A stretch of DNA of 37,641 nucleotides from Thermoanaerobaculia bacterium (GTDB lineage Bacteria > Acidobacteriota > Thermoanaerobaculia > Gp7-AA8), in the NCBI GenBank assembly GCA_035576505.1, contig DATLWH010000298.1, positions 1 through 37,641 of the forward strand, read 5' to 3'. The position numbers and the translations under genes were made by a program. The notes beneath the pieces are model-generated. The model made no database searches. It saw only the letters and a program-made list of their open reading frames with translations, and had not been told where the DNA came from. This document shows, one piece after another, positions 1,250 through 33,895 of this stretch (the first letter of the stretch is position 1; the number at the start of each line of letters is the position of its first letter).

Positions 1250-1437
1250 TAACTTTCATCCGAACCTATGCATCGTCTGTCTTCGTTCGTCATCCGCGGC
1301 GGTTCCTGTAACCGACAGGGCGAAGCTCATTCTCCCGAAAGATCCCCTCGCCGCGACTCCGCGTTGACCGGATCCCGCACCGCGGCGTGCAGTTGCCGCG
1401 GGCCGTGGCAGAGCACGATCAAGAGGGTTGGTCCCTG

Positions 1438-2688: not shown

Positions 2689-2747
2689 CGTTCGCCGGGC
2701 TGAATCACAAGACCGCCCCGGCCGGCCATCCTGGCAGCAGATTCAAG

Positions 2748-3965: not shown

Positions 3966-4017
3966 CGCGATCCCCTGCTAGCGGCTGGAACGGACTTAAG
4001 ACGAGAAGGTACTAACC

Positions 4018-6438: not shown

Positions 6439-6473
6439 CCGATTTTTCAACTGCACGGTCAAGGAGACCACGA

Positions 6474-7205
6474 ATGACTACTCAGCCTCTCATCAGTCTG
6501 CAAGGCATCAAGAAGGTCTTTTACACCGAGGAATTGGAGACAGCGGCGCTAGACGACATTCAGATCGACATCGATCAAGGCGAATATGTTTCGATCAGCG
6601 GTCCGTCCGGCTGCGGGAAATCGACGCTGTTGTCGGTGATTGGACTCCTGCATTCCGCCACCGATGGAAAATATCTTCTCGACGGCAAGGAGGTAACAGG
6701 TCTGCAATCCTCAGAGCAGGCGCGTGTGCGGAACCGGGAGATCGGGTTCATTTTTCAGGCGTTCAACCTGATTCCCGACATGAGCGCGTTCGAGAACGTC
6801 GAACTGCCGTTGACGTATCGCGACGACCTCAATAAGAAACAGCGCCATGACCTTGTCCTGACGGCGCTGGAACAGGTGAATATGGCGGAGCGCCAGAAGC
6901 ACTTCCCCTCGCAGCTGTCCGGCGGTCAACAACAGCGCGTCGCGATTGCCCGCGCTCTGGTCGGGAAACCGAAGGTTCTGCTCGCGGACGAACCGACGGG
7001 GAACCTCGATTCGAAGAACGCGCAGCTCATCATGCAGATGCTCGACGGGCTGCATGGGCAAGGCAGTGCCATCGTCATGGTCACACACGATCCGCGCTTC
7101 GCCGAGCGGGCAGAGCGGCTGATCTCGCTGTTCGACGGACGGATCGTTGAGGATCGGCGCCTTGACGCGAGCAGCTCCCCGGTAGGGGTCGCCGCAAGCG
7201 CCTGA
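6474..7205 (+). CDS. ABC transporter ATP-binding protein (MacB/LolD-type NBD).
   Basis: Walker A is GPSGCGKST, the signature is LSGGQQQRVAIARAL, Walker B is VLLADEPTGNLD and the H-loop is VMVTHD. Confidence 0.95.
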   Translation: MTTQPLISLQGIKKVFYTEELETAALDDIQIDIDQGEYVSISGPSGCGKSTLLSVIGLLHSATDGKYLLDGKEVTGLQSSEQARVRNREIGFIFQAFNLIPDMSAFENVELPLTYRDDLNKKQRHDLVLTALEQVNMAERQKHFPSQLSGGQQQRVAIARALVGKPKVLLADEPTGNLDSKNAQLIMQMLDGLHGQGSAIVMVTHDPRFAERAERLISLFDGRIVEDRRLDASSSPVGVAASA

Positions 7206-7220
7206 AGACGGGAACGCATC

Positions 7221-7469
7221 ATGACGAAGATCGAAATACTCAATCTCATCGCGCAGCATACGCGAGAGATACTGCCAGGCCTCGACGCGCACGAGTTCGT
7301 CGCTGCCGACCGCCTGGTCGACTTGGGCGCCAATTCCGTTGATCGCGCCGAGATCGCCATGGTCGTGCAGGAATCACTGGGCTTGTCGGTGTCGCGCGTC
7401 GAGCTGTTCGGGCCGAAGAACATCGGGGAGCTGGCGGATCTGTTCCTGAATAAAGCGCATGCAGCCTGA
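7221..7469 (+). CDS. Discrete acyl carrier protein, the donor ACP of a beta-branching (HCS) cassette (AcpK/CurB-like).
   Basis: It is 82 aa with the phosphopantetheine attachment motif DLGANSVDRAEI. It overlaps the start of the downstream KS-like gene by 11 nt. Confidence 0.85.
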   Translation: MTKIEILNLIAQHTREILPGLDAHEFVAADRLVDLGANSVDRAEIAMVVQESLGLSVSRVELFGPKNIGELADLFLNKAHAA

Positions 7470-8676
7470 AGCGGTCGTGACCGGGCTGGGCGTCATCTCG
7501 GCCATTGGTCAGGGGAAGGCTTCATTTATGAACGCGTTGCTTGCGGGCGAGACCGCTTTCGGCGTGATGCGGCGCCCGGGCCGCCAGAACGAATCCGCGT
7601 ATCTCGGCGCGGAGATTCTGGAAATCGGTTTCCCTCAAGCGATCACCAGGCAGACGTTGCGCGCGGCCTCGCTTTCTGTGCAGGTGGCTCTGTTCGTACT
7701 GCTGGAGGCGTGGATCGAGGCGCGGTTATACGACGTCGATCCTCGCCGGATCGGCCTCATCGTGGGCGGCTCGAACATTCAGCAGCGCGAATTGACCCAG
7801 GTTCATGAGGCCTATCGCGACTCTCCGGCGTTTCTGCGGCCCACGTACGCCCTGTCGTTCATGGATTCGGATCTCTGTGGCTTTTGTACGGCGCAGTTCG
7901 GAATACGCGGTCTGGCCTACACTGTGGGCGGCGCATCGGCGAGCGGTCAACTGGCGATCGTTCAGGCGGCGCAGGCGGTCGTCACAAAACAGGTCGATGT
8001 CTGTATCGCGGTGGGCGCGCTGATGGATCTGTCGCATTGGGAGTGCCGGGGATTGCGGGCGCTGGGGGCGATGGGGTCGGATCGCTATGCGAACGAGCCC
8101 GCGCTGGCTTGCCGTCCCTTCGACAGGGACCACGACGGATTCATTTTCGGCGAGTCCTGCGGAGCGGTGGTGATCGAGTCGCTGGAGTCGAGTCAGAGCC
8201 GGGGTCTGAAGCCTTACGCAACGTTGCGCGGCTGGGGAATCGCCATGGACGGCAACCGCAATCCCAATCCCTCGCTCGAGGGAGAAATGCAGGCCATTCA
8301 GATCTCACTCGATGCAGCCGGATGGGCGCCCGCGCAGATCGACTATGTGAATCCGCACGGCACGGCCTCGGTCGTCGGCGACGAAACCGAGCTGAAAGCA
8401 CTGCAGGCCTCCGGATTGTCGGGAGTTTTTTTAAACGCGACCAAGTCACTTATTGGTCACGGTCTCAGCGCCGCTGGTACGGTGGAAGTGATTGCCACAC
8501 TGCTGCAGATGCGGGCCGGGCGGTTGCATCCAACCCGCAATCTGGAGAATCCTATCGAGCCGACGCTCAATTGGGTCAAAGACAAGTCGGTCGAGCATCA
8601 AATCGAGAATGCGTTGACGCTGAGCATGGGATTCGGCGGGATCAATACGGCTCTGTGCTGGCAGCGGCAGAATTAG
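7459..8676 (+). CDS. Non-elongating ketosynthase with active-site Cys replaced by Ser (KS-S, malonyl-ACP decarboxylase; PksF/CurC/TaK-like).
   Basis: The fold is a thiolase/KS fold. The active-site position reads GGASASG, with the Ser codon at 7936-7938 where KSs carry Cys. Both catalytic His contexts are kept (NPHGTAS and KSLIGHGLSAAG). Confidence 0.85.
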   Translation: MQPEAVVTGLGVISAIGQGKASFMNALLAGETAFGVMRRPGRQNESAYLGAEILEIGFPQAITRQTLRAASLSVQVALFVLLEAWIEARLYDVDPRRIGLIVGGSNIQQRELTQVHEAYRDSPAFLRPTYALSFMDSDLCGFCTAQFGIRGLAYTVGGASASGQLAIVQAAQAVVTKQVDVCIAVGALMDLSHWECRGLRALGAMGSDRYANEPALACRPFDRDHDGFIFGESCGAVVIESLESSQSRGLKPYATLRGWGIAMDGNRNPNPSLEGEMQAIQISLDAAGWAPAQIDYVNPHGTASVVGDETELKALQASGLSGVFLNATKSLIGHGLSAAGTVEVIATLLQMRAGRLHPTRNLENPIEPTLNWVKDKSVEHQIENALTLSMGFGGINTALCWQRQN

Positions 8677-8679
8677 CTC

Positions 8680-9456
8680 ATGACCCTTGCCGCCTACGAG
8701 ACGATCAAGGTGGAATTCCAGGATTCGATCTGTTTCTTGCAGATCGACCGGCCTGACGCGAACAACACGATCAACAGCGAGCTCATCACCGAGTGCAATG
8801 ATGTGCTGTCGGTGTGCGAGCAGTCCGCAACTGTCGTCGTATTGAGTGGCTCGCCGGAAGTGTTCTGCTTTGGCGCCGATTTCAAGGCCATCGCCCGCGT
8901 ATCGAAGACGGAGCAGGCCGAGGACGAGGGCCCGGGGCCGCTGTATGACTTGTGGCTGCGCATTGCGTCCGGTCCGTACGTGACGATCTCGCATGTGCGC
9001 GGCAAGGTGAATGCGGGAGGCGTGGGGTTCGTCGCAGCGAGCGATATCGTTCTCGCCGACGAGACCGCGGTGTTCAGTTTGTCCGAGCTGCTGTTCGGGC
9101 TGAACCCTGCGTGCGTGCTGCCGTTCCTCATCCGCCGCATCGGGTTTCAAAAGGCGAATTTACTAACGCTGATGACACAGCCCATCTCGGCGAGGCAAGC
9201 CTGCGAATGGGGATTGGTGGACGCGGTCGAGCCGCAGAGCGATGTTCTGGTGCGTCGTTATTTGCAACGGTTGCGGCGACTGTCAAAGACCGCGATTCGA
9301 CGCTACAAGATCTACATGAGCCGCATCAACGTGCCCCTGGAAGCGCAGAGATCGCCGGCACTCGCCGCCAATCGGGAAGTTTTCTCCGACACCGACAATC
9401 TGCAAGCCATTGCCCGGTACGTCGACCACGGTATATTTCCGTGGGAAAAATCGTAG
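8680..9456 (+). CDS. Enoyl-CoA hydratase/crotonase family, ECH1-type (PksH/CurE-like HMG-ACP dehydratase).
   Basis: CFLQIDRPDANNTIN, EVFCFGADF, YVTISHVRGKVNAGGVGF, FSLSELLFGLNPACVLPFLIRRIG and the FPWE C-terminus closely resemble my recollection of B. subtilis PksH rather than PksI. Confidence 0.8.
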   Translation: MTLAAYETIKVEFQDSICFLQIDRPDANNTINSELITECNDVLSVCEQSATVVVLSGSPEVFCFGADFKAIARVSKTEQAEDEGPGPLYDLWLRIASGPYVTISHVRGKVNAGGVGFVAASDIVLADETAVFSLSELLFGLNPACVLPFLIRRIGFQKANLLTLMTQPISARQACEWGLVDAVEPQSDVLVRRYLQRLRRLSKTAIRRYKIYMSRINVPLEAQRSPALAANREVFSDTDNLQAIARYVDHGIFPWEKS

Positions 9457-9489
9457 GAGCGTCGACTGTCATTCTCCGAGACTGTATTC

Positions 9490-10422
9490 ATGTTCTCAGG
9501 CCAGGGGTCGCAGTACTTCCACATGGGAAAGGCACTGTACGATGGCAACGACACTTTCCGGGACTGGATGACCCGGCTCGACGAGATTGCACGGCAGTCA
9601 TCAGGCCAGTCGGTAATCGAGACCCTTTACTCCGGTGCTCACCGCATGGGAGATCCATTCGACCGCACCCTGCTCACGCATCCGGCAATTTTCATGGTGG
9701 AATACTCGCTCGCGCAGTCGTTGATTCACGCCGGCGTGCGGCCGGTCAAGGTCCTGGGCGTCAGCATGGGCTCGTTCGCCGCGGCGGCAGTGGCAGGTTT
9801 CATCGATGCCGGCGATGCATTGACCGCCGTGATCCGGCAGGCGATTGCGATCGAAGAAGGTGGCGAGCCGGGAGGCATGATCGCCGTCCTTGCCGACCCG
9901 GGGCTCTTTGCAGAGGACTTTCTCGGCGGCCGCAGCGAACTGGCGGCCGTCAATTTCTCTTCAAACTTCGTCGTGTCCGCAAGACAAACGGAGCTGGCCG
10001 AGATTGCAACGGCCCTAAAACAACGCAACGTCGCCCACCAACGGCTTCCGGTATCGTTTCCGTTTCATTCGCAGTGGATCGATCAGGCGAAATCGGCCTT
10101 CGGTTCTTTCATGACGTCGATTCCATGTAAGCGCGGCACGTTGCCGCTGGCCTGCTGTGACAAGACCACAATCTTGTCCGACCTGTCCGATGACTACTTC
10201 TGGAACGTCGTCCGTCACCCGATTCGATTCCGCGAAACCACCGCGCGGCTGGAACGAGAGGGTACTCACCGCTACATCGACGTCGGTCCCTCAGGAACCT
10301 TGGCCACCTTTCTGAAGTACGGGCTACCCGCAGCCACCGAATCGACGGTCCATTCCATTCTGACGCCTTTCGGCGTGGATCAGAAGAATCTGGCCGCCGT
10401 GTCGGCGTCGGGCGGACACTAG
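9490..10422 (+). CDS. Acyltransferase-family protein of the PksD/PedC-like clade (putative proofreading acyl hydrolase, AH).
   Basis: MFSGQGSQYFHMGKALY, THPAIFMVEYSLAQ, the nucleophile elbow GVSMGSFAAAAVAG (no His before the Ser), PVSFPFHS and GPSGTLATF all fit. The overall pattern matches PksD-type rather than FabD-type ATs. Confidence 0.8.
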   Translation: MFSGQGSQYFHMGKALYDGNDTFRDWMTRLDEIARQSSGQSVIETLYSGAHRMGDPFDRTLLTHPAIFMVEYSLAQSLIHAGVRPVKVLGVSMGSFAAAAVAGFIDAGDALTAVIRQAIAIEEGGEPGGMIAVLADPGLFAEDFLGGRSELAAVNFSSNFVVSARQTELAEIATALKQRNVAHQRLPVSFPFHSQWIDQAKSAFGSFMTSIPCKRGTLPLACCDKTTILSDLSDDYFWNVVRHPIRFRETTARLEREGTHRYIDVGPSGTLATFLKYGLPAATESTVHSILTPFGVDQKNLAAVSASGGH

Positions 10423-10427
10423 CCCCA

Positions 10428-11189
10428 ATGCGAGTCTTTGCCCTTTCGGACATCCACATCGACTACGCCGTGAACTCCAAGTGGATTGAAGGCCTGTCCG
10501 CCGTTGAATATCAGAACGATGTGCTCATTCTAGCCGGCGACGTGACCCACGCCCCGCGACGGCTGGAATGGTGCCTCAACACGCTCGCGAGGCGTTTTCA
10601 GAAAGTGCTCTTCGTTCCCGGAAACCATGACCTGTGGGTTATCCCCGAAGACCGTAAAAAGAATTCACTGCAAAAGTTCGACGATGTCTGCGCGTTGGTC
10701 GAATCGAGCGGCGCGTCGATGCAAGCGTTTCGCGAGCGGGGTCTGTCGATCATTCCACTGCTGGCCTGGTATGACTATTCCTTCGGCGAGCCGAGCGACG
10801 AATTGAGGTCGATCTGGATGGACTACCGCGCATGCCGTTGGCCGAGCGGATACACCGACAAAGACGTCGCCGTGCACTTTGCGGCGTTGAATGACAAACA
10901 CGTCAGCGTTCTGGGCGACACCGTCATCACGTACTCGCACTTTTTGCCACGCATTGATCTGATGCCGGCGGGCATCCCGCGCTCGGGCAAGCTCCTCTAT
11001 CCAATCCTGGGCTCGGCGAGACTGGACCGCCAGTTGCGAAGGCTAAACGCAAACATTCACGTCTACGGACATAGCCATGTGAACCGTCGCGTGAAGATCG
11101 ACGGCGTAACGTACATCAACAATGCATTCGGCTACCCCAGCGAGACCTGGATCACCTCGAAGGGCCTGATGAGTATCCATGAGTGGTAG
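10428..11189 (+). CDS. Calcineurin-like metallophosphoesterase.
   Basis: The full motif set is present: SDIHID, AGDVTH, GNHDLW, SHF and YGHSH. It overlaps the downstream PPTase start by 11 nt. Confidence 0.85.
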   Translation: MRVFALSDIHIDYAVNSKWIEGLSAVEYQNDVLILAGDVTHAPRRLEWCLNTLARRFQKVLFVPGNHDLWVIPEDRKKNSLQKFDDVCALVESSGASMQAFRERGLSIIPLLAWYDYSFGEPSDELRSIWMDYRACRWPSGYTDKDVAVHFAALNDKHVSVLGDTVITYSHFLPRIDLMPAGIPRSGKLLYPILGSARLDRQLRRLNANIHVYGHSHVNRRVKIDGVTYINNAFGYPSETWITSKGLMSIHEW

Positions 11190-12012
11190 TGCCGCGGACC
11201 GGCGCAGCCAGGCGGAGAGCGGGATCATCCCGCTCACGCCAGCCGAGATTCATGTATGGCTCGCTTTTTACGATGAAATCAGCGACGAGCGCCTGCATGC
11301 CGTCTATCGTCATCTGCTCGATGACGCGGAAAGGGAACAGGAACCACGCTTCTACTTCGCGCGCGACCGGTGTCGTTACCTGGTTACGCGGGCATTGGTG
11401 CGGACGGTATTGTCGCGCTACGCGCCCATCGCGCCCGAGGAATGGATGTTTTCCACGAATGCCTATGGGCGGCCGGCGATCGCGAACGATACTGCGCGCC
11501 ACCTATCGTTCAATATTTCGCACACGCACAGTCTGATTGTTCTCGGCGTGACCAGTCGGCGCGCGTTAGGGTTGGATGTCGAGAACGTCCGCGACCGGCC
11601 AGCGTCGATCGATATCGCGGCTCACTATTTCGCGCCACAGGAAGTTGCGGTGCTTACTGCCGCGCCGCCGCTTCAGCAGCAGGATCGATTTTTTGAGTAC
11701 TGGACGTTCAAGGAATCGTACATCAAGGCGCGGGGCATGGGTTTATCCCTGCCCCTCGACAAGTTCAGCTTTCACTACCCGGATGATCATGCCGTCGAGA
11801 TCGCCATCGATGCCGACCTGGCCGACGATGCGGCACGCTGGCAGTTCTGGCAGTTCCGGCCGAGGCCGGAATACCTGGTCGCGGTCTGCGCCGAGCGAGT
11901 CGGCGCTCAGCCTGCGAGTCTTATCGCTCGGCAGGCAATTCCTATGTTGGCTGACAAACCATTTGTTCTCGACTTCCTCCGGGTTTCAGAACACGCGCAA
12001 CAGGAGAGTTAG
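11179..12012 (+). CDS. Sfp-type 4'-phosphopantetheinyl transferase.
   Basis: FNISHTHSLIVLGV, GLDVE and FEYWTFKESYIKARGMGL (the W/KEA motif) are present. The stop TAG is immediately followed by the ATG of the next gene. Confidence 0.85.
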   Translation: MSGSAADRRSQAESGIIPLTPAEIHVWLAFYDEISDERLHAVYRHLLDDAEREQEPRFYFARDRCRYLVTRALVRTVLSRYAPIAPEEWMFSTNAYGRPAIANDTARHLSFNISHTHSLIVLGVTSRRALGLDVENVRDRPASIDIAAHYFAPQEVAVLTAAPPLQQQDRFFEYWTFKESYIKARGMGLSLPLDKFSFHYPDDHAVEIAIDADLADDAARWQFWQFRPRPEYLVAVCAERVGAQPASLIARQAIPMLADKPFVLDFLRVSEHAQQES

Positions 12013-12885
12013 ATGATCGCCTTTGTATTTCCCGGTCAAGGTTCACAGAAACGTGGGATGGGTCAAGGTTTGTTCGATGAAGTGCCTGAATATGCCGCGG
12101 TTGAGAAGGATGTCGACGCCATTCTCGGCTATTCAATGCGGGCGCTGTGTCTGGAGGACGCGGATAACCGTCTGAGACAGACACAATTCACTCAGCCCAG
12201 TCTCTACGTGGTCAATGCGCTGCACTACTACAAGGCGGCCGGCGAGGGTGCCCGGCCCGCGTACCTGGCGGGCCACAGTCTGGGCGAATACAACGCGCTG
12301 CTCGCGGCGGGCGTGTTCGATTTTCTGACTGGGCTCCGACTGGTGAAGAAGCGGGGGGAGTTGATGTCGCAGGCAAAGAATGGCGGCATGGGCGCGGTGA
12401 TCGGCCTGAGTGCCGGCGCGATTGCCAAGGTCGTAGCCGAGAGCGGACTGCAGAGTCTTGACATCGCCAATTTCAATACACCGTCGCAAACGGTGGTATC
12501 GGGCCCGGTCGACGACATCAGGCGCGCCGGTTCGTTCTTCGAGAAGGCAGGCGCCCAGATGTATATCCCGCTGCAGGTCAGCGCCGCCTTCCATTCGCGA
12601 TATATGGCGGATGCCGCGAACGTGTTCGGTGATTTTCTCGCACCGATGTCGTTTGCTCCGCCGAAAACGCCTGTCGTCGCCAACGTGACCGCCCAGCCGT
12701 ACCCTGCCGACGACAGTTCGGAGTCGGTCAAATCGCTGCTGGTGAATCAGATCACGCATTCCGTCCAATGGGCGCAGAGCATCAGCTTTCTCATCAGTCA
12801 GGGCGTCACGACATTCAGTGAACTGGGTCCTGGAAATGTGTTGACGCGGATGGTGCAACAGATTCAGCAGCGAAAAGCCGCCTGA
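12013..12885 (+). CDS. Malonyl-CoA:ACP transacylase, free-standing trans-AT (FabD-like).
   Basis: FVFPGQGSQ, GHSLGEYNAL and VSAAFHS are present. The size is 290 aa, and all PKS modules downstream lack AT domains. Confidence 0.9.
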   Translation: MIAFVFPGQGSQKRGMGQGLFDEVPEYAAVEKDVDAILGYSMRALCLEDADNRLRQTQFTQPSLYVVNALHYYKAAGEGARPAYLAGHSLGEYNALLAAGVFDFLTGLRLVKKRGELMSQAKNGGMGAVIGLSAGAIAKVVAESGLQSLDIANFNTPSQTVVSGPVDDIRRAGSFFEKAGAQMYIPLQVSAAFHSRYMADAANVFGDFLAPMSFAPPKTPVVANVTAQPYPADDSSESVKSLLVNQITHSVQWAQSISFLISQGVTTFSELGPGNVLTRMVQQIQQRKAA

Positions 12886-12928
12886 CGTATCGCCACGCTT
12901 GCCGAGGCGAATCCCTCGGGAGGAATCT

Positions 12929-14173
12929 ATGGGTAGGACAGCTCCGCGCCGTTCATTCATGATGCAGTACCGCGCGGAAGATTTCCCGCTCTACTTGTTG
13001 GGGCTGGTGCTCGCCGGCACGCTGATCGCGCCCGCACTTCCGAGCCGAAGTGAACAACTGTTGCTGGTTGCCGCTCTCTTGTACATGGTGGCGTTCTTCC
13101 TGATCAAGCACGGCGCGAAATTCGAGGTGCGCTTCTTTCACGATGTTCTCGAGGGGCTGACGCGCTATCCGGTCATGCTGGTGCGCAACTGGTGGATGGC
13201 CCGTCATGCCATAATCCCCATCACCGGCGTATTTTTGCTCGCGCTGACCGGCGAACGCTTCCTGCGTCCCGCGCTTGCCGGCACGAAGTGGCTCAATCGT
13301 TTTCCGTGGTGGTGGGTGGTGTGGACCGCGTTCCTGCTCATCACGTTGTTTCGGGTGACGATTCTGATCGCCCATCTGCTCCGTGCTTCGGTCGTTCGCG
13401 AAGTACTTGAGGACTCGGCGCAGAAAAAGATGATCGAAGTTTTGCCGATGCACCAGCATATCCTCCATGCGTTCATCACCGGCATGCTGGCGCATCTATC
13501 GGTGGTTGCGCCCTGCGTTTTGTTCTACATGCTGACCAAGCCGTCAAACTTGCGCGAGGTGTTGCTCGTAGCCGGCTATGTGGTCTGGTCGGGGGTGGCC
13601 CGCCCTCTGAAGAAGCGCAAGATCATCGAATCGCCGCCAAAAATCGGCTTCAACCTGGTATATCAGAATCATACGATCGCTCACAGGTCGCGGTTCTTTT
13701 TCACCGTTTTTCATGGTCATCACCATGATGCCATCCCGTCGGCATTGATCGGATCCGCCGGCGGAACGGGATTCTTTGAAAACGTCGATCGGGGACTGAC
13801 CTGGCTCGATTTCCTGAATAGCGTCGTGGTCATGCAAATCCTGTGGGGCTATTCGATTCTGTTCGACATGGTCGTTCATCAATACATCCCGGGCGTATTT
13901 CCCTTCGCCAAAGTAACGGTCCTCGGAACCGCTCACCACGTCACCCATCACTTCGGCAGCGCACTTCCTCTGGGACTGATCTTTAACGGGTATATCGAGA
14001 CCCGTGACTACGACAACGGCTACAAGTCGGACAACAAGGTGACCCGCTGGTTCGTCGATCAGGTGGAGCGGCGGGAGGGACTCGACCCGGAGCTCCGCAG
14101 GAAGTACCTGGCATTCGGTCCGACAACGTCTTCACTGTCCAGCGATGCCTCCACCCGTGCCGCGGCCGAATAA
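12929..14173 (+). CDS. Polytopic membrane His-box protein, paralog 2 of 2748-3965 (putative membrane di-iron oxygenase).
   Basis: The motifs are NHTIAH, FHGHHHDAIPS, VVHQYIPGV and TAHHVTHHFGS. It shares VREVL and HAFITGMLAH blocks with paralog 1. ATG 12929 is preceded by gggagg. Confidence 0.7.
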   Translation: MGRTAPRRSFMMQYRAEDFPLYLLGLVLAGTLIAPALPSRSEQLLLVAALLYMVAFFLIKHGAKFEVRFFHDVLEGLTRYPVMLVRNWWMARHAIIPITGVFLLALTGERFLRPALAGTKWLNRFPWWWVVWTAFLLITLFRVTILIAHLLRASVVREVLEDSAQKKMIEVLPMHQHILHAFITGMLAHLSVVAPCVLFYMLTKPSNLREVLLVAGYVVWSGVARPLKKRKIIESPPKIGFNLVYQNHTIAHRSRFFFTVFHGHHHDAIPSALIGSAGGTGFFENVDRGLTWLDFLNSVVVMQILWGYSILFDMVVHQYIPGVFPFAKVTVLGTAHHVTHHFGSALPLGLIFNGYIETRDYDNGYKSDNKVTRWFVDQVERREGLDPELRRKYLAFGPTTSSLSSDASTRAAAE

Positions 14174-14261: not shown

Positions 14262-14510
14262 ATGACGCAACAGGAACTGCACCGAGATTTGACCGAGTCC
14301 TATCTCAAATCTCTCATTGCCGAGGTTTGCGATTCTTTGAGCTCAGATTTCGACTCGTCGACGGCATTTGGTGAGCTGGGGATCGATTCATTCTATGTGT
14401 TGAAGATCGTCAGAAGGCTGGAGGCGGACTTCGGTACGTTGCCCAAGAGCCTTCTTTTCGAGCACTTCCGCATCAGCGAATTGGCGAACTACTTCGTCAC
14501 GAAACACGCC
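14262..14510 (+). other. ACP0, a carrier domain at the extreme N-terminus of the PKS.
   Basis: The motif is FGELGIDSFYVLKIVRRLE, with the Ser43 codon at 14388-14390. Confidence 0.8.
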
Positions 14511-17500
14511 CAGACGATCAATGCGAAGTTTGCCGCGGAACTGGAGGGTGCGGTTTCGCCCGCTTTGGGCGGCGGCCGGCAACTGGAACTGGTTGCGCCG
14601 ATGGAAATAGTCAAGGTGGCTCCGGTGAAGGCGCGCACGTCCGTGGAGCAAAAGCCCCTCCGCATCCTGGAGAGCAAAGCCCGGACGCATCCCAAGATCG
14701 GGCCGCTCGTCCGGGAGCTTTACGACCGCTATAAGTACGAAGGAACCGCGTCGCGCGGGACGAGAAAGATTGCGCCGAATCTATTCATCGGCGGCTCGAG
14801 GCGCGGCTATTTCAACTACGGGCGAAGCAAGGACATCATCCTGGTGTACGGCTATAGCGGGGCGCAGGACTATCTGCCCACGCTTCGCGAGGAAATGTCC
14901 GGCTATTGTGATGCAAACGGCCTTCAACTCAATTTCTTCAGCGACGGAGAGATTCCGCCGATCGCCGGACGTTCGTTCTCAGCCACGCCGTTCGGCGTAA
15001 TGCAGCGCATCGTGAACCTCAAGGAATTCTCCCTCGAGGGCGGCGCGATGCGCCGCCTGCGATATCAGGTATCCAAGTTCCAGAAAGCCGGCGTGGCCAG
15101 AACGGAAGAGTACCGGAGCGGCACCAGGCCCGACACGGACCAGGACATCGCCCGCGTCATCGATCGATGGTGCGAAGGGAAGACGATGGTCAACCCGCTG
15201 GTGCACGAAGTGAAAGGCGAAATTCTCGCCGGCACGCTGCCCGCGGAGCAGCGGCTGTTCCTCACGTATCTCGACGAGGTCCTCCAGAACGTCATCCTCG
15301 TCGATGAAATGTCGCCCGAAATCAACGGCTACTTGATGGATCTGGAATTCTATCCTCCGGAGATGCCGATGGGAGGGCTGGATCTCGCGATTGTACAAAT
15401 CGTGGCCATTCTCGCCGCGGAAGGCCGCGATGTGCTGAGCCTGGGCGGGACCTACGGTGTCAAGATTGAACCCTCCGCCACCGCGGATCCCGAGCTCGAC
15501 AAGCTCCTGGACAATCTGCGTGAACAGAACATATTCAATGACGAGAGCAATCTTCAGTTCAAGAACAAATTCCGCCCGCTGACCATGCCTATCTTTCTCT
15601 GCCGCCCGATAGGCAGCGGCAATCCCGACAATATCCTCGACATCATCATGATGATTGCCGATCCGGAGAGGATGCAGACGCCGGATGAGGAGACCGACAC
15701 CTTCGGAGATACCGCTCCGCCCGAGGTCGCGACGGTGATTGCAGAACCGGTGGCGCGTCGGTCAATGGCTGTGGCAGCGGCGCTGGCAAGTGCCGATCAG
15801 GTGATCGAAGGGAATGATCGGTCGAGCGTTCTGGCGGAATTCGGTTTCAATCCCCTCAATATTCCGCACGAACATGTCGCGATCGATCTGAAGACCGACT
15901 CGTGGGCGCAACTGGAGATGCCTGCAATCGCGGCGCAAATGAAGCATCTGCATTCACGACTGCAGCAGCCGGCGAGTGTCGACGACAGCTTGAGGGCGGT
16001 CTTTCCGTTCCCGCATTTCGTCCTTACGACCTCCGGGCAGGCGGCCGAGAGCATCTTTTTCAAGACCTGGCCGAAGAAAGGCGTCGTACCGCAGAATCTG
16101 CTGTTTCCCAGCACGATCTTCCATCAGATCGACAAAGGCTTCACGCCGAGGGAGCTGCCTCATCCCGCGGTCTTCCAGTTGAATGCGCGAGAGCCGTACA
16201 AAGGCAACATGGATCTCGATGCGCTACAGGCGCTGGTGGCGCAGGATCCAGCCGCAATTGCCTGTGTCTGCATCGATGTAGGTAACAATGCTTCAGGCGG
16301 CCAACCGGTCTCCTTGCAGCATCTGCGCGACGTCAGAGCGCTGCTCGCCGCACATTCCATCCCACTCGTGATCGACGGCACGCGGGTGATGGAGAATGCG
16401 CAGTTCCTGATCGAACAGGGAAAGGAATGCGGGGGCAAGAGCATTTGGGCGGTCGTGCGGGAGATCTTCTCCTGCGCTGACGCGGTCATCGGAAGCCTGA
16501 CGAAGGATTTCTGCGTCAACAAGGGCGGAATCGTCGCCATCAATGACATCAAGCTGTTCCAGAGACTTCAGGAGGTCGTTCTTGAAGAAGGAGCCGGGCT
16601 CGATCTGATCGATGCGAAACTGATCGCTCTTTCTCTACAGAAGCGAAAGCACATCGAAGCCAAGGTGTTGCGCAGGATGGAGGGTGTGCGCCTCATCTGG
16701 CAGGCCTTGGCCGAGCGTGGCGTTCCGGTCGCGCAACCCGCCGGTGGGCACTGCATTCTGATCGACGTCAAGCAGATTCCAGAATTCAGGGCTCTCGGGA
16801 ATCCGGTCGCGTCATTCCTGGCCTGGTTGTATTTGAACACCGGGATTCGCGCGGGCGCACACAGTGTGGGAATGCAGAAACGTACCCCGATCAATGATCT
16901 TGTCCGTCTGGCCATCCCTGTCGGCTTGAAGCGTGAGCAAATCGACAACGTGATTGACCGGCTTGTCGATGCATTCGGGAAGAAGACGAACATTCCTGAA
17001 ATCGTGATCGAGAGCAGCGTACCACAGCCGCTGGGCAGCGTCTACGCGAAGTTCAGATTAGAGAAATATCATCACGTTTCAGGAGGGATCGCCGCCGGAA
17101 CAGACGCCGCGCCTTCTTCCGTTGCCGGCCCATCGCCAGTTTCACCGGAGCCGGCGGAGGTTTCGTCGCCAGGCGAGGCCGTCGTGGTTGACAGCGTACC
17201 CGCCGAAACTCCATCCGCACCGACTCCCATGAATGCGAGACCGCGCCGCGCGCACAACGTTGCCATTGTCGGAATGGCGGGCCGTTATCCCAAAGCGGGC
17301 AATGTGAGGGAGCTGTGGGAGAATCTGGCCGGCGGCAGAGACTGCATTGAAGAGATTCCCGCCGAGCGCCATGAACGCCGGCTGCAGCATGGAAGCAACG
17401 AGAGGTATCGCGGCGGTTTCATCGACGGCGTCGATAAGTTCGACTCTCTCTTCTTCAACATTTCTCCCAGAGAAGCGGAAATGCTGGATCCGCAAGAGCG

Positions 17501-20500
17501 CCTGTTTCTCGAGGTGGCGTGGGAAGCAATCGAGGACGCCGGCTACTTTCCCGAGATCCTGGCGCGGGAGGATACGTCGCGTACGATCGGTGTATTCGTC
17601 GGGGCCGTATGGGCGATGTACCAGGTCGTCGGCGTCGATGAACAGCGCGCCGGCAATGAGGTCGCTCCGAACTCATTTCTGTGGAGCATCGCCAACCGCG
17701 TCTCCTACTGGATGAATCTGTCCGGCCCCAGCCTGACGGTCGACACGGCATGCTCGTCGAGCCTGACGGCCCTCTATCTGGCGTGCGAGGCTATCCAGGC
17801 CGGCGAATGTTCCGCCGCCATCGTCGGCGGCGTAAACCTCGACCTGCATCCGGCCAAACTGGATATCAATAAGATCGGCGGCGCGCTCTCGCCTGACGGT
17901 GTCTGCCGCACCTTTGGGAAGGGTGCGAACGGGTATGTAGCAGGTGAGGGCATCGGTGCGCTCCTTCTCAAACCTTTGGATCATGCGGAGCTGGACCGCG
18001 ACCACATCTATGGCGTGATCAAGGGCGCCGTGGTCAACCATGGCGGCCGTACGAGTGGATATTTCGTTCCCAATCCGTCGGCGCAAAGCAACGTGATCCA
18101 GTCGGCGCTGCTCAAAGCGAATGTCGCGGCGGGAAGCATCGGGTATATCGAGGCGCACGGTACAGGCACCGAACTGGGTGACCCGATCGAGATCTCGGGT
18201 TTGAATAGCGCGTTCAGCGGGGACAAGGTCGAGAATCAAACCTGCGCCATCGGCTCGATCAAGAGCAACATCGGCCATCTGGAAGCGGCGGCGGGAGTGG
18301 TCGCCGTCTCTAAGGTCCTCTTGCAGATGACCCATCGGCAGCTCGTGCCTTCCCTTCATTCCTCCGAGCCGAACGAGCACATCGATTTCGAGCATTCGCC
18401 TTTCTATGTCGTACAGAAGCTGGAGGAGTGGAAAGCGAAGGAAGTGGATGGGGTGCGGCTTCCCCTACGCGCGGGAATCAGCTCGTTTGGCGCCGGGGGA
18501 GCGAACGCGCACATCATCCTGGAGAGTTATGAGCCCGCCGGACAAGCGACAGAAGAACCGGCCATGCCGTCGGACTTGATCTTCCCTCTCTCAGCCAGGA
18601 ATGAGGATCAGCTGCGCGACGCCGCTGTTCGGCTGGCGCAATTCCTTCGACAGAACCGCGTCGACTTGAGGGACGCAGCCTATACCCTGCAACAGGGGCG
18701 GAAGTCGTTCGAGCAACGTCTGGCAATCATCGCCAAAACCCAGGAAGAATTGATCGAGAAGCTGACACTGGTCATCGACCAGCAGAGGGGCGACGGCATT
18801 GTGGCCGGCCATGTGAAGCTCGCGGAGAGTGTCACGCGGTTACTGAACCGAAGTGAGAGACAGGAGTTCGTTCGGATGCTGTCGGCCGGCCGGGATCCTC
18901 ACAAGATTGCCGCATTGTGGGCTGAAGGACTGCTCACGGACTGGCAGGGGTTTCAATCCAAAGGCACCGAAAAGAGAATCTCGTTGCCCACCTACCCCTT
19001 TGCCGGCAAGCGACACTGGATCGGCGATCCGTCGGCGGTGCGCCGCGCATTGCAGCCGGTGGCGGGCACGCACCCGATGGTCGACACGAACGAGTCCACC
19101 TTTGAGCGGCAGCTCTTCAAGAAGACATTCCACGATCGCGACTTCTTCATTTACGACCATCTTGTGTCGGACATCCCCACGCTACCCGGCGTGGCGTATC
19201 TCGAGCTGGCGCGGGTCGCCGGAGAAATCGCGGCTGGTAGGCCGGTGCGACGTATTCAAAACATTCTTTGGGTGAGTCCGATTGTGGTTGAGAACTCGAT
19301 CCCCAAAGAGGTGTTCATCGAGCTGAAGCCGAGCGGAGACGCCGTACAGTTCGAAGTGTTCAGCGAGTCGGCCGAGGGCGTCAGGCTGCTACACTCACAG
19401 GGAAGACTTCTCTACACGAACAGGCCGGAATCCTCCGCGGATCCGGAGTTCGTCGATTTGGATGCCATTCGCGCACGATGTGCGAAAGGCATCGATGGAA
19501 AGAGCGCCTATCCGCTCTTCAAATCTGTCGGCCTCAGCCTCGGTCCGAGCTTTCAGGTCCTCCAGGAAATCTATCAGAGCGATACGGAAGTCCTCGGAAT
19601 TCTGAAACTCCCCGAGTTCCGTCAACCCGACCTGCAAAGCATGGTTCTCCATCCCTCACTGATCGATGGTTCCCTGCAGGCCGGAATGGCCGCGCGCCTC
19701 GGCGCCAGCATCGGCGAGATGCTGGTGCCCTATTCCATCGGCGAGGTCGAGATCCTCCATCCATTGCAATCCCTCTGTTACAGCTATACGACGGAGGCGG
19801 GCGGTAAGAAGGGCTCGCGCGTTCTGAAATCTAACGTACTGATCCTGGACGAAACCGGGAAAGTCCTGGCAAGAATTCGCGAATCGACCGGCGTGCCTCT
19901 GGGTGATGTCAACAAAAAGTCCGACAGGGATGCGGCGGAGGCGGGCGATGCAAAGGTCTACTATTCGTACGAATGGGGGAAGGCGCCTCTGACTGCTGGT
20001 AGTCCGAGCCGGAATGCACCGCAATCGATTCTGCTGTTCGATACCCAGGAAACACTGCGCGATCTCTATCAGGTCCGGCTGACGGAAGCAGGGGCGACGA
20101 CCGCACAAATCATCCTGGTGCAGCCGGCTGCTTCGTTCCGCGAACTGGACGCTCTCTCTTACGAGATCAATCCACAGAGCAGGGATGACTTTACGCTGCT
20201 CTTCGAATCGCTGGCGGAAAGAAAGTGCCCGATTGACGAGATCTGCTTTGCCTGGCCGGTTGAGCACGTGGATTTCCGTGATGAGCAGCTCCGCGGAGAA
20301 GCATTGGAGAGAGGGGTTTTCTCCTTCCTGTTCCTCTGCCAGTCCGTCATTCAGGCGAAACTCGAAGGAAAGGTGCAGCTCCTTTATCTTTATGCAGCGC
20401 GGCCGGACGAGGCACAGCCGCAGAACGAGGCCATGAGCGCTTTCGTCAAGACGCTGAAGGGGGAGTACCCCAGGTTGCTCTGCAAGGCGCTCGAGATTCG

Positions 20501-23500
20501 GCAGGAGATGGGCGGCTACGGCCAGATCGTCGACGCCGTATGGGCGGAGCTTCGCGCACGCACCGAGGATGCGAGTGTGGTGCGCTATGAGGCGCAGGAG
20601 CGCTTTACAAGGAGGCTCACAGCCTTCGACTTCGAAGAGACCGATGGGCCGCCTTCTTCGGAAGGTTCGCATCTGAGGGAAAAAGGCGTCTATCTCATTA
20701 CGGGAGGAGCCGGCGGGCTCGGCCTCATCTTCGCCGAGTTTCTGGCGAAACAGTACAAGGCACGATTGATCCTCACCGGCCGATCCGCTCTGTCGGCTGA
20801 ACGGGAAGCCGAGCTGGAGGCGCTCCGAGGATACGGCGCGGAAGTGATCTATCTGCTCGCCGATGTCTCCAGCCTCGACGATGTCCGGACTATGGTCAGC
20901 GAAAGCAAGTCGCGTTTCGGAGAGATCAACGGCCTCATCCACGCCGCCGGCGTCGTCAGGGACTCGTACATCAGGAACAAGACGCCGGATGAAATGAGCG
21001 AGGTTTTCGCCCCCAAGGTGCATGGAACGCTGCATCTGGACGAGACAACCCGGAACGAAGCGCTCGATTTCTTCGTGATGTTCTCCTCGCTCGCTGCCGT
21101 CACCGGCAATGTGGGCCAATGTGACTACAGCTTTGCGAACCATTTCATGGATTCGTTTGCGGCCGACCGCGAAAGGCTTCGGGTCCAGGGAGAGCGGTCC
21201 GGAAAGACACTGAGCATCAATTGGTCGTTGTGGGCCGGGGGCGGAATGAAGCCCGACGAACAGACCGAGCTCCTGTTGCGGAAAGCCATGGGCATGAAGC
21301 CGCTGAGCGCGGCCGCGGGCATCGAAGCGTTCGTGCTCGGTCTTGCTTCAGGACGCTCGCAGTTTGCAGTCCTCGAGGGGAATGCCGAGAAGCTGGAACT
21401 GGCTCTGGGAGGGAGAAAGAAGGAGCCTGCGCCTTCGCCGCCACCATCGTCCGATCACGCCGCGGCCGCGGTTGTTGCCGCTGAAGGAGACAGGGATCTT
21501 CGTGAGTTGGTGCAGAACGATCTCTCGAAGATCGTCATGGGGCTCCTGAAGCTTGATGCCGCCGACTTGTCGGCAGACAAGATCCTGCTCGACCTGGGTT
21601 TCGACTCGATCGGCCTGACGACGTTCGCAAACGCGGTGAACGACAAGCTGCAGCTCGACATCACGCCGATCCTGTTCTTCGACTATCCGTCGATCGGTGA
21701 GATCGCGACGCATCTGGCTGACGAGCGGAGGAGCGAGCTTCATCACTTCTATCGAGGTTCTGCGGCCCCCTCGGCCGGTACACCGTTGCCAGCAGCACTA
21801 CAAGCGAAGATCGTCGCCGCTGAGAGCCTATCGGCGACCTTCACGCCCAAGAAGGGGTGGGATCCGGCTGCCTTCGATCGCGAAGCATCGGACAGGAAAG
21901 CAATACCAACGGCTTCCGGCGAAGACGTTTCCGCGGAGCTCCGTTTTGTAAACAAGCCGATGGCAATCGTCGGGATGAGCGGCGTCATGCCGCAATCCGC
22001 GGACCTGGAAGAATTCTGGGATAACCTGAAGAACTCGAAAGATCTGGTCACAGTCATCCCGCCCGATCGCTGGCGCTGGGAGGACTACTTTGGCGATCCC
22101 CTCAAGGAGGCGAACAAGTCGAACTCCAAGTGGGGCGCGTTCATGAAGGAGATCGACAAGTTCGATCCTCTGTTCTTCGGAATCTCCCCAAGAGAAGCGC
22201 AGATGATGGATCCGCAGCAGCGGATCTTCCTCGAGCAAGTGTGGAAGGCGGTGGAGGACTCCGGGCAGAAAGTCTCCCAGCTTGCCGGCACAAAAACCGG
22301 AATATTCGTCGGCGTTGCAACCAATGATTATCTCGAAGTCATCACCGGCGGGGGAGCCGTGCTGGACGGATATAGCGCTTCGGGCAACTCGCACGCCATT
22401 CTCGCGAACCGGGTGTCATTTCTCCTAGGTCTGCGTGGACCAAGCGCACCCCTGGACACCGCTTGTTCCAGCTCATTGGTGGCGATGCACAGAGCCATTG
22501 AATCGATCCATTCGGGAAGCTGTGAGATGGCGATCGTGGGTGGCGTACAGGTAATGCTGAGCCCTGCCGCATACATTTCTTTCTCCTCGGCAGGAATGTT
22601 GAGTCCCGATGGAAAATGCAAGACGTTTGACAAGCGGGCGAACGGCTATGTGAGAGGCGAGGGATGCGGCGCAGTCTTCATCAAGTCGCTCGCGGCCGCC
22701 GAGGCGGATGGAAACCACATATACGCGGTCATCAAGGCGACGGCGGAAAATCACGGCGGGCGGGTGACGGCGATGACTGCACCGAACGCATCCGCTCAAG
22801 CGGAGCTCTTGATCGAGGCTTACGAGAAAGGACATCTCGATCCCGGGACCGTTGGGTATATCGAGTGCCACGGCACGGGAACCAGCCTGGGAGATCCGAT
22901 CGAAACGCAGGCGCTTAGCAAGGCGTTTGCCGAGCTGTACAAGCGGCACGGCAAGGCTCCGGCGGACACGCCTCACTGCGGCTTGAGCTCTGTAAAGACC
23001 AACATGGGACACCTCGAGACCGCAGCCGGGATTGCAGGTATCCTCAAGGCATTGCTCGCCATCAAGCACCAGCAGATTCCGGCGAACATCCATCTGGAAG
23101 AGGTCAATCCCTATATAAACCTCAAGAGGACTCCGTTCTACATCGCGGACAAACTCACTTCATGGAAAGCGCCGGTGAGCGTGGATGGGTCTCCTGCCCC
23201 TCGCACGGCCGGCGTGAGCTCGTTCGGCTTCGGCGGAGCCAATGCTCATGTCGTACTGCAGGAGTACCTCGCTCCACTCCGTCAATCGCTGTCTGCAGCG
23301 TGCGAGCCTCGGTTGATCGTGCTGTCCGCGAAAACTGAAGATCGGCTCCTGGCATACATGCAGTCAATACATTCGTACCTGGAGAGGCTGGATGTCGAGT
23401 TGATCGATCTCGCGTATACGCTGCAGATTGGAAGAGATGAGATGCCGGCAAGACTGGCACTGGTCGTCTCCAGTACAGAGGAGTTGAAACAGAAGCTCGG

Positions 23501-33733: not shown

Positions 33734-33895
33734 ATGGAAACAGTGAACGAGTTTCTCAGGACGTTGGTCAGCAAGGGCGTCAAGCTGTCGGCCGTTGCCG
33801 GCCAGCTGAACTGCTATGCCCCGAGCGGGTCGGTCACAAATGACATCAGGAAAGGCATTACCAGGCACAAGCCGGAGATCCTTGCACTATTAGAA
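33734..33895 (+). other. TubC-type N-terminal (beta-hairpin) docking domain.
   Basis: The sequence METVNEFLRTLVSKGVKLSAVAGQLNCYAPSGSVTNDIRKGITRHKPEILALLEG fits the pattern of the TubC_N docking family. Confidence 0.65.

Follow-up and report, generated by a model that had tools for sequence, protein, structure and literature searches.

How does a polyketide assembly line begin when its first carrier domain is followed by two enzymes foreign to polyketide synthases (PKSs), and only then by a ketosynthase (KS)? The question is raised by contig DATLWH010000298.1 of a Thermoanaerobaculia (Acidobacteriota) metagenome-assembled genome (MAG), whose whole 37.6-kb record (37,641 nucleotides) is the window analysed here. 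Its content is a single co-directional cluster encoding a trans-acyltransferase (trans-AT) PKS and a nonribosomal peptide synthetase (NRPS). The first PKS gene, PKS1, opens with an acyl carrier protein (ACP) domain, ACP0, then a DUF2156-like domain (DUF) and a lyase domain (SH) that requires pyridoxal phosphate (PLP), all ahead of its first KS, KS1:

14262 to 26159, + strand: PKS1, 3965 aa
14301 to 14492, + strand: ACP0, carrier (aa 14-77; PP-binding, 38.1 bits against a cut-off of 20.8)
14670 to 15665, + strand: DUF domain, DUF2156/LPG_synthase_C, MprF-like tandem-GNAT (aa ~137-468)
15801 to 16994, + strand: SH domain, fold-type I PLP beta-eliminating lyase of the cysteine/thiocysteine C-S lyase type (aa 514-911)
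17253 to 18359, + strand: KS1, from about aa 998, condensation-competent by its motifs
19062 to 21716, + strand: rest of module 1, dehydratase (DH), ketoreductase (KR) and ACP1, by Pfam and motifs; kept with the cassette in all relatives

On balance, we read ACP0-DUF-SH-KS1 as a leinamycin-type beta-sulfur-installing cassette that heads this trans-AT PKS-NRPS line. The product of this front unit is probably a starter that bears a thiol; the most likely cargo of ACP0 is an enoyl-type electrophilic starter, which would be converted to a beta-thiol or hydropersulfide.

The order ACP-DUF2156-lyase-KS had been described in a first-pass annotation of the same DNA, and it was confirmed, with the three Pfam domains before KS1 scoring above their cut-offs. 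The PKS1 open reading frame (ORF) has no possible start upstream of 14262, and only 13 residues stand ahead of ACP0. The phosphopantetheine serine of ACP0 is Ser43 in a GIDS motif (codon 14388-14390). For the DUF, the Pfam LPG_synthase_C/DUF2156 match covers aa 181-447 with 54.1 bits (cut-off, 27.5). Score and hallmark motifs make it a member of PF09924, the synthase-domain family of aminoacyl-phosphatidylglycerol synthases (aaPGS) and MprF, with the fold of the GNAT superfamily. Matches to the aaPGS/MprF structures 6lv0, 7f47 and 4v34 were weak but consistent (E, 1e-4 to 1e-5), and the motifs LR.., DL..P..P.G and FK.KF.P were common to both. The likeness to aaPGS/MprF consists of this family membership and these motifs; the DUF differs in lacking a membrane flippase, in being embedded in a PKS, and in its proposed reaction, a thiol conjugate addition rather than an aminoacyl transfer. 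With FemX, VlmA and DhpH-C, the DUF has no more in common than the GNAT fold (PMC6103681).

The Pfam Beta_elim_lyase match of SH covers aa 571-824 with 105.4 bits (cut-off, 27). Its PLP lysine is Lys748 (codon 16503-16505), and Arg882 is the equivalent of the alpha-carboxylate-binding Arg404 of tyrosine phenol-lyase (TPL). With TPL and tryptophanase, SH shares the fold-type I PLP fold, the lysine, an Asp-x-x-Arg motif and the carboxylate arginine. An assignment as a true TPL or tryptophanase was rejected, the scores being below the curated NCBIfam equivalog cut-offs (171 against 720.7 for TIGR02618, 119 against 825.8 for TIGR02617, and 224.6 against 285 for PRK13238). PLP domains embedded in PKSs form a group without the phenol-protonating tyrosine and without Arg381 (PMC3870968). 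The best structural match of SH in the PDB was 9cen_A, "Polyketide synthase protein" (1.4e-60), with TPLs behind it at 1e-45; a literature search for entry 9CEN turned up unrelated papers only.

The same pair of domains is known from leinamycin biosynthesis. Milano et al. 2013, who surveyed the PLP domains of assembly lines, gave LnmJ as ...CP-CP-DUF2156-PLP3-hydrolase, the hydrolase being a thioesterase (TE) and CP a carrier protein (PMC3870968). In vitro, SH is a PLP-dependent cysteine/thiocysteine C-S lyase whose action provides the polyketide with -SH or -SSH; its substrates are polyketide adducts with an S-linked cysteine that keeps its free carboxylate, and the activity has been shown for the SH domains of LnmJ, GnmT and WsmR only (PMC8479088). 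For the DUF, addition of (thio)cysteine to an ACP-bound unsaturated thioester has only been proposed (PMC8479088, PMC7618002).

The PKS1 tridomain was 36% identical to the leinamycin-type proteins P0027, P0028 and P0030, in which an alpha/beta-hydrolase accompanies DUF-SH (E, 1e-114 to 1e-164). It was 37% identical, over 84-92% of the query, to leinamycin-type PKSs borne on Streptomyces plasmids, which were the only matches when PLSDB plasmids were searched by tblastn for a fully annotated cluster with the cassette at the N-terminus (N-type). Several features of a PKS-embedded DUF-SH didomain in the broad sense were found together in PKS1: DUF2156 followed by the PLP lyase, an AT-less PKS, full-length similarity, both the PLP lysine and the carboxylate arginine, and a carrier directly before the DUF. 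By homology, the DUF2156-lyase pair of PKS1 is the DUF-SH didomain of leinamycin-type PKSs, and from its conserved residues SH is predicted to act as a C-S lyase on an ACP-bound (thio)cysteine adduct.

What the window shares with leinamycin is thus the pair of domains, in identical order after a carrier in an AT-less PKS, at 36% identity and with the PLP lysine and carboxylate arginine. The position differs. In leinamycin, the unit belongs to the terminal module, where a KS and tandem ACPs precede it; it acts after beta-branching by HMG-CoA synthase (HMGS), and a TE follows. The window unit stands at the very N-terminus: it has one ACP, no KS in cis before it, a KS after it, and no TE. The leinamycin-type NRPS-PKS scaffold is absent in the window, and the features that define a leinamycin-family gene cluster in the narrow sense, a terminal KS-ACP-ACP-DUF-SH-TE in an eight-module line acting after HMGS beta-branching, were not found. 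Since the terminal-module, TE and beta-branch features are lacking, the window is not a leinamycin-family cluster; judged by its sequence, its cassette is a member of the broad DUF-SH sulfur-incorporation family.

The cassette is widespread. We collected 69 loci: 27 from a scan of GTDB genomes, 41 from a scan of JGI metagenomes, and one, L079, by protein look-up (L and P numbers denote loci and proteins). In the GTDB scan, it was found in Acidobacteriota (Thermoanaerobaculia, Terriglobia, Ca. Angelobacter and Blastocatellia) and in Bacteroidota (Fulvivirga and more), Fibrobacteres, Lysobacteraceae, Kangiellaceae and Phenylobacterium. The carrier was at the N-terminus of the protein in all 69 loci, and Acidobacteriota was the main phylum. 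Cultured carriers of the cassette are Fulvivirga kasyanovii JCM 16186 (NZ_BAAAFL010000029.1, near 256.9-279.9 kb), F. marina 29W222, F. imtechensis AK7, Kordia algicida OT-1 and Lysobacter sp. ATCC 53042. The block ACP-DUF-SH-KS-DH-KR-ACP-KS had constant spacing among related loci, with the KS at about 1150-1200, the KR at about 2140, the ACP at about 2440 and KS2 at about 2720 across phyla. An exhaustive HMMER search of representatives (50% identity clusters; E<1e-30) gave 324 proteins. In about 20 closest full-length representatives (44-76% identity), the DUF started at residue ~105-170; in more distant ones, the didomain was internal or C-terminal.

For conservation, 60 N-terminal-type and three leinamycin-type sequences were aligned. 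Ser43, Lys748, Arg708 and Arg882 were invariant in the 60 N-terminal-type sequences, and Asp705 was present in 59. Conservation reached at least 97% at 196 of about 1000 positions in these 60 loci, which span several phyla. Between the N-terminal and leinamycin types, 108 positions of the tridomain were identical, 65 of them in the DUF, including D360, QFKNKFRP at 432-438, and C447. Relatives in Lysobacteraceae, Kangiellaceae and Bacteroidota were 50-58% identical, and the cassette was intact even between phyla with no more than 50-57% identity. Strong purifying selection on the tridomain is supported by this pattern. A further idea, raised in the first-pass annotation as a possible refutation of its own model, is that both inserted domains are relics without activity, in which case priming would have to be of an unrelated kind. 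Only the absence of a known product speaks for it. The invariance of Ser43, the PLP lysine and the carboxylate arginine shows that DUF and SH are not relics; with the catalytic residues checked all among the 196 conserved positions and the cassette intact between phyla, the idea is barely credible.

Two side observations concern the distribution. Two MAGs, both of Thermoanaerobaculia, each carry two separate N-terminal-cassette clusters (L008 and L025 in GCA_038230535.1; L007 and L080 in GCA_036375075.1), so that within one genome the cassette has been duplicated or moved by recombination to different lines. A candidate stand-alone ACP-DUF-SH protein from Paraburkholderia (P0020; L029/L030:10001-12280, 759 aa) was rejected as truncated within SH; it adjoins IS elements and efflux genes and is probably a remnant.

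What the cassette works on can be approached from the proteins that carry it internally. Every internal or C-terminal example had an ACP, then DUF, then SH. Most internal modules read KS-DH-(KR)-ACP(n)-DUF-SH-KS (P0283, P0294, P0296, P0305 and P0324), from which it follows that the DUF usually comes after an enoyl-forming module, with or without beta-branching. In internal DUF-SH PKSs, the best matches of ACP0 were the ACPs directly before the DUF, and ACP0 bears the signature of such pre-DUF carriers, DSF..L..(x)LE..FG.L.K.LLFE. P0294, P0296, P0305 and P0324 have the same four-domain ACP-DUF-SH-KS unit as the window, with ACP and KS orthologous to ACP0 and KS1. They differ in having the enoyl-forming KS-DH-KR in cis, whereas the window cassette has no enzyme in cis that would make the Michael acceptor.

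Variants of the internal unit were also seen. In L027:10001-16017 and in P0305, a second ACP stands between SH and KS (ACP-DUF-SH-ACP-KS), which recalls the in-series tandem ACPs of leinamycin-type module 8. P0283 (6145 aa) has two DUF domains, an internal one with SH and a second at its very C-terminus, preceded by three tandem ACPs; the SH for the latter is presumably on the next protein.

KS1 points the same way. It has the motifs DTACSS, with Cys1164 (codon 17751-17753), HGTGT and NIGH. A neighbor-joining tree of 38 KS domains placed every post-SH KS in a single clade, made up of six N-terminal-type KS1s, that of the window included, and eight internal KSs; the remaining KSs of these proteins lay elsewhere, KS2 and KS4 of the window among them. 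By BLAST, the best match of KS1 was the post-SH KS in seven of the nine internal DUF-SH proteins having KS domains. The first-pass annotation had suspected a special KS type, and the tree bears this out. Comparison with trans-AT KS structures in the PDB gave no information on substrate. In trans-AT PKSs, KS clades follow the alpha/beta chemistry of the incoming chain, so KS1 should accept a beta-thio-substituted acyl chain like the internal post-SH KSs. We suggest that KS1 takes the product of ACP0-DUF-SH and that its clade is specialised for post-DUF-SH intermediates.

The first-pass annotation had proposed an undescribed priming logic, in which an amino acid would pass from aminoacyl-tRNA to the carrier and then be edited by the PLP enzyme. 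In explicit form, the DUF would move serine or cysteine to the ACP0 thiol and the lyase would edit it to a dehydroalanyl or pyruvoyl starter. The DUF does belong, above the Pfam cut-off, to the aminoacyl-tRNA-dependent aaPGS family and keeps its motifs, including FK.KF.P and an aspartate aligned to that of 'SLDLM' in P. aeruginosa AlaPGS; no other activating enzyme was found upstream; and there is a loose precedent in DhpH, which joins a PLP domain to a tRNA-dependent GNAT domain (as cited in PMC6103681). The proposal was nevertheless not supported. The pair is the published DUF-SH, and the characterised SH homologues use S-substituted cysteine with a free carboxylate. As SH retains the arginine that binds a free alpha-carboxylate (Arg882, 60 of 60), an S-linked cysteine adduct fits its substrate and an aminoacyl thioester does not. 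ACP-DUF-SH-KS also occurs mid-line behind KS-DH-KR, where the ACP is already loaded with a polyketide, and KS1 groups with post-SH KSs. To our knowledge, no transfer from tRNA to a carrier thiol has been described. We consider this model very improbable.

For the reading that we prefer, a beta-sulfur cassette at the head of the line, the following chemistry is proposed. In step 1, holo-ACP0 would be charged in trans with an acyl group having an electrophilic beta-carbon; the simplest cargo would be an alpha,beta-enoyl unit, for instance acryloyl, crotonyl or a 2-enoyl chain of greater length. Candidate sources are the acyltransferase-like AT1 encoded upstream, an enoyl-CoA hydratase (ECH) acting as dehydratase on 3-hydroxyacyl-ACP0, a KS-DH partner, or di-iron proteins of the His-box type. 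In step 2, by homology, the DUF would join L-cysteine or L-thiocysteine through sulfur to the beta-carbon, a reaction that is a proposal in leinamycin too. In step 3, SH would cut the cysteinyl C-S bond by PLP-dependent beta-elimination, releasing pyruvate and ammonia and leaving beta-SH or beta-SSH; this step draws on the in vitro chemistry of the leinamycin-type homologues and, in the window, on conserved residues. In step 4, KS1 would elongate the beta-thio acyl starter, and DH-KR-ACP1 of module 1 would give a 2-enoyl product. The predicted product is a polyketide-peptide headed by a thiol or persulfide.

Because the DUF keeps the aaPGS family motifs, a tRNA could take part in step 2, and likewise in the DUF step of leinamycin. 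A more far-reaching version makes the cassette a self-contained starter factory, which would turn a simple acyl group, delivered in trans by AT1 for example, into a beta-thiol or hydropersulfide on ACP0, with the DUF using cysteinyl-tRNA or a LanB-like activation of a beta-hydroxyl. We think it quite unlikely. If true, it would be an undescribed mode of PKS priming and the first tRNA-dependent step in a polyketide assembly line, and it would imply widespread thiol-headed polyketide-peptides in Acidobacteriota, Bacteroidota and Gammaproteobacteria, possibly with zinc-binding warheads of the FK228 kind.

Several points weigh against a sulfur cassette at the head of the line. The window holds no enzyme known to put an enoyl group on a carrier, as step 1 would require. 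We know of no biochemical demonstration of DUF function in any system, and of no member of the N-terminal-cassette family with a known product. The window, being a whole contig, hides genes past both of its ends, including the HMGS that is implied by the beta-branching genes described below.

Further points against the head-of-line position come from a rival that keeps the same chemistry and moves it to another place in the line. ACP0 would be a mid-line carrier, and KS-DH or KS-DH-KR at the C-terminus of a separately encoded PKS would build the enoyl thioester on it for DUF-SH to thiolate. A fused KS-DH-ACP-DUF-SH-KS-DH-KR-ACP is found in P0283 and P0308, and, as noted, internal DUF-SH is usually behind an enoyl-forming module. 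In L031, a PKS ends KR-ACP-KS-DH, without an ACP of its own for the last module, 3 kb upstream of ACP0-DUF; its KS has Cys/His/His intact, and an AT, an 87-aa ORF and a His-box protein lie between. L035, L036 and L078 have orthologous carrier-less proteins ending in KS-DH, whose neighbours are shared with the upstream block of the window: a donor ACP, an ECH (81% identical), a MacB-type protein (~28%) and a His-box protein.

We regard this split module as rather unlikely. Among the 68 loci with usable upstream sequence, L031 was the only one with a PKS gene within 10 kb upstream of PKS1; the other 67 had none. The left boundaries of L022, L079, L008, L014 and L027 are non-cluster genes. For example, pyruvate kinase bounds L079, and the genes upstream of the NusG gene in L008 are unrelated to the cluster. 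L022 shows a compact cluster almost from end to end: an oppositely oriented glycosyltransferase, NusG, donor ACP, KS0, ECH, an ACP-containing protein, AT1, phosphoesterase, phosphopantetheinyl transferase (PPTase), AT2, a single PKS (ACP0-DUF-SH-KS1-DH-KR-ACP1-KS2), MatE and a GMC oxidoreductase. A NusG-type antiterminator gene lies ~1 kb or less upstream of PKS1 in L009 and in several loci of Bacteroidota. The PKS block of L036 opens with KR, methyltransferase (MT) and ACP (KR|MT-ACP) colinear to module 2 of the N-type PKS1 (54-68% identity), so its carrier-less KS-DH looks like the end of a line that ACP0 starts. In L078 and on the P0179 contig, an AMP-binding domain comes first in the PKS/NRPS block that follows the accessory genes. 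None of the ~20 full-length N-type representatives has a KS fused before ACP0, and the 13 residues ahead of ACP0 leave no space for a docking domain.

The carrier-less ends are worth recording in themselves. They lie at L035:10001-15113, L036:10001-15245, L078:10001-14491 and L031:1921-6945, and their last KS appears able to elongate. In L035, L036 and L078, but not in L031, an MBL-fold hydrolase is next, directly or after a NusG gene, and HMGS also follows in L035, L036 and the P0179 contig. A KS-DH followed by a stop is thus an unusual but recurrent end-of-line arrangement in acidobacterial trans-AT clusters.

The other features of the window are as follows.

296 to 994: NusG/LoaP-like antiterminator gene
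1387 to 7205: genes for HlyD, a protein of unknown function, MacB and ABC
7221 to 7466, + strand: small donor ACP
7459 to 8676, + strand: PksF-type decarboxylating KS0 (Cys to Ser)
8680 to 9456, + strand: PksH-type ECH1
9490 to 10422, + strand: AT1, divergent and acyltransferase-like (Pfam, NCBIfam, alignment)
10428 to 11189: metallophosphoesterase
11179 to 12012: PPTase
12013 to 12885, + strand: AT2, FabD equivalog
12899 to 14173, + strand: His-box membrane protein, directly upstream of PKS1, with a paralogue at 2655 to 3965
26200 to 33720: PKS2
33734 to 37641 (contig end): NRPS, TubC_N-C-A-PCP-C...

The domain order is ACP0-DUF2156-lyase-KS1-DH-KR-ACP1-KS2-DH-KR in PKS1 and MT-ACP2-KS3-ACP3-KS4-KR-ACP4 in PKS2. 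PKS1 has linker families of trans-AT PKSs, and no AT in cis was found with Pfam. Neither PKS1 nor the 12 upstream genes encode an adenylation (A) domain, CoA ligase, FkbH, GNAT loader, KSQ or amidotransferase (AMT) detectable with Pfam or NCBIfam, as the first-pass annotation had noted for the first four; the sole A domain in the window is downstream, in the NRPS.

As for its two ATs, that annotation was right about the FabD-like one. AT2 scored 330 bits against the TIGR00128 fabD cut-off of 260.9 and has GHSLG and AAFH motifs; by score and motifs, it is a FabD-type malonyl-CoA:ACP transacylase, the trans-AT of the line. The other, AT1, it had taken for a PksD-like putative hydrolase. AT1 has GVSMG in place of GHSxG, and in the alignment a Gln at the position of FabD Arg117; because the malonyl-binding arginine is absent, AT1 could handle a non-carboxylated acyl group. 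It may be a hydrolase with a proofreading role, or else a transferase that would bring a non-carboxylated starter to ACP0. The order AT1-metallophosphoesterase-PPTase-AT2 is kept in the N-type loci of Acidobacteriota and Lysobacteraceae, and in the cassette loci of these groups a metallophosphoesterase always lies between AT1 and the PPTase. L078, a related cluster that opens with an AMP-binding loader, is without it.

KS0 (NF005490, 617 bits; active site GGASASG), ECH1 (NF005498, 404 bits) and the donor ACP, which is 78% identical to that of L036, look like part of an HMGS beta-branching cassette, a trio that went unmentioned in the first-pass annotation of the loader. Neither HMGS nor ECH2 is in the window. 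Across the N-type loci, no HMGS was found in the upstream flanks or the first ~10 kb of PKS1, and it was seen only beside PKS genes ending in KS-DH (L035, L036 and the P0179 contig). The compact cluster of L022 also has the trio, with no HMGS in 23 kb. The HMGS for the trio is either encoded far away or the trio has a different job. The Trp 'flag' of beta-branching ACPs was absent in all five ACPs and thus pointed to no branching site; the trio may act on ACP0 or on ACP3. L079 and L026 carry the cassette without a donor ACP, KS0 or ECH nearby, and beta-branching is thus not an obligatory partner of the N-terminal cassette.

These genes bear on a more conventional explanation, in which AT2 loads ACP0 with malonyl or acetyl, KS1 or the free KS0 decarboxylates it, and DUF-SH works in trans on a later intermediate, for example enoyl-ACP1 or a beta-branched glutaconyl-type chain on ACP3, as in module 8 of leinamycin. 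Trans-AT lines often begin from malonyl-ACP. Module 1 yields an enoyl thioester, and a donor ACP, KS0 and ECH1 without ECH2 is the state that, in the leinamycin family, leaves a carboxylated branch for DUF-SH. This explanation leaves the fixed order ACP-DUF-SH unaccounted for, as well as the orthology of ACP0 to pre-DUF carriers and their common signature; KS1, and not KS2 or KS4, is in the post-SH clade; and L079 and L026 have the cassette and lack the trio. We judge it improbable.

The His-box protein upstream of PKS1 has three His boxes (HTIAH, HGHHH and HHVTHH), N-terminal hydrophobic segments and a weak FA_hydroxylase match. It is ~32% identical to its paralogue, and the Pfam match of the two is weak or none. 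Both appear to be di-iron desaturase/hydroxylase-like proteins whose link to the cassette is uncertain. One to three copies lie beside the N-type PKS gene in many acidobacterial relatives, with three in a row in L068.

Some relatives have additional genes just upstream of the N-type PKS. In one kind, an ACP-like N-terminus is fused to an amino-acid ligase of the ATP-grasp type; the other encodes a protein of 269 aa that begins with an ACP and has a GNAT-like tail, weak or undetected (L011:7350-8780; L024:4561-6075 and 8336-9913; L001:5164-5973; L022:4958-5767). The window has neither. At its left end (1-148), just upstream of the NusG-like gene, are seven copies of a 21-bp tandem repeat with the consensus GACCTCGTGGAGACCAAGCGT (87% matches), which reads as a KRDLVES-like heptad in one frame. 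At the other end of the line, L034 has a close PKS2 orthologue; next come a DH-ACP, a TE-containing NRPS, and genes for transport and tailoring, an order that also favours the head-of-line reading. No single related contig carried an N-type line that was complete up to its release step.

The N-terminal layout itself has been catalogued before. Proteins of Kordia algicida (A9ECY5) and Lysobacter sp. ATCC 53042 (F8TUA6) were listed as CP-DUF2156-PLP3-KS-KR-CP-KS (PMC3870968). The 109 PKS proteins with DUF-SH reported by Meng et al. 2021 fall into four clusters, of which three are non-leinamycin, and Lysobacter AEH59109 is among the DUF-SH proteins aligned in the supplement (PMC8479088). The Kordia and Lysobacter entries have the same N-terminal CP-DUF2156-PLP-KS layout as the window; they are catalogue lines without product, substrate or mechanism, and the window has modules of its own (KS-DH-KR|MT-ACP, KS-ACP, KS-KR-ACP and NRPS). 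Until now, the layout had been recorded but never analysed. This study adds how broad the clade is, that its ACP and KS types co-evolve, and that internal versions sit in an enoyl-forming context, together with the evidence for the head-of-line position.

Two other kinds of starter unit invite comparison. The loaders of glutarimide trans-AT PKSs, ACP-AMT-KS, have an N-terminal carrier that is loaded in trans and an embedded non-PKS enzyme that acts before the first KS. The analogy to the window is functional only: the amidotransferase differs and there is no sequence relationship. The mercapto starter of FK228 and thailandepsin comes from NRPS-loaded cysteine. In the short relatives L031:10001-21785 and L080:1-13441, the order KS-DH-KR-ACP, KS-KR-ACP, C-A-PCP after the cassette resembles the module logic of 3-hydroxy-7-mercapto-4-heptenoate, the FK228-type warhead with a C3 thiol starter, and may be a lead for predicting products. 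Here too the enzymes differ and there is no sequence relationship, and the line of the window is longer.

The cassette is not a categorically new mechanism. On present evidence, it is no new system for priming a carrier from tRNA either, and with this a false lead is removed. It is a good lead for genome mining and enzymology. DUF-SH is the only known PKS-embedded machinery that puts -SH or -SSH straight into a growing polyketide, and it has so far been studied solely in the last module of leinamycin-type lines. Here, a coherent and phylogenetically wide clade (69 loci, ~20 full-length representatives) opens its lines with this cassette and with dedicated ACP and KS types. Should the head-of-line reading hold, thiol- or persulfide-headed polyketide-peptides would be expected from taxa in which no such product is known, and these lines would offer a minimal setting for the question of what the DUF does: one carrier, no upstream KS, and cultured hosts in Fulvivirga, Kordia and Lysobacter.

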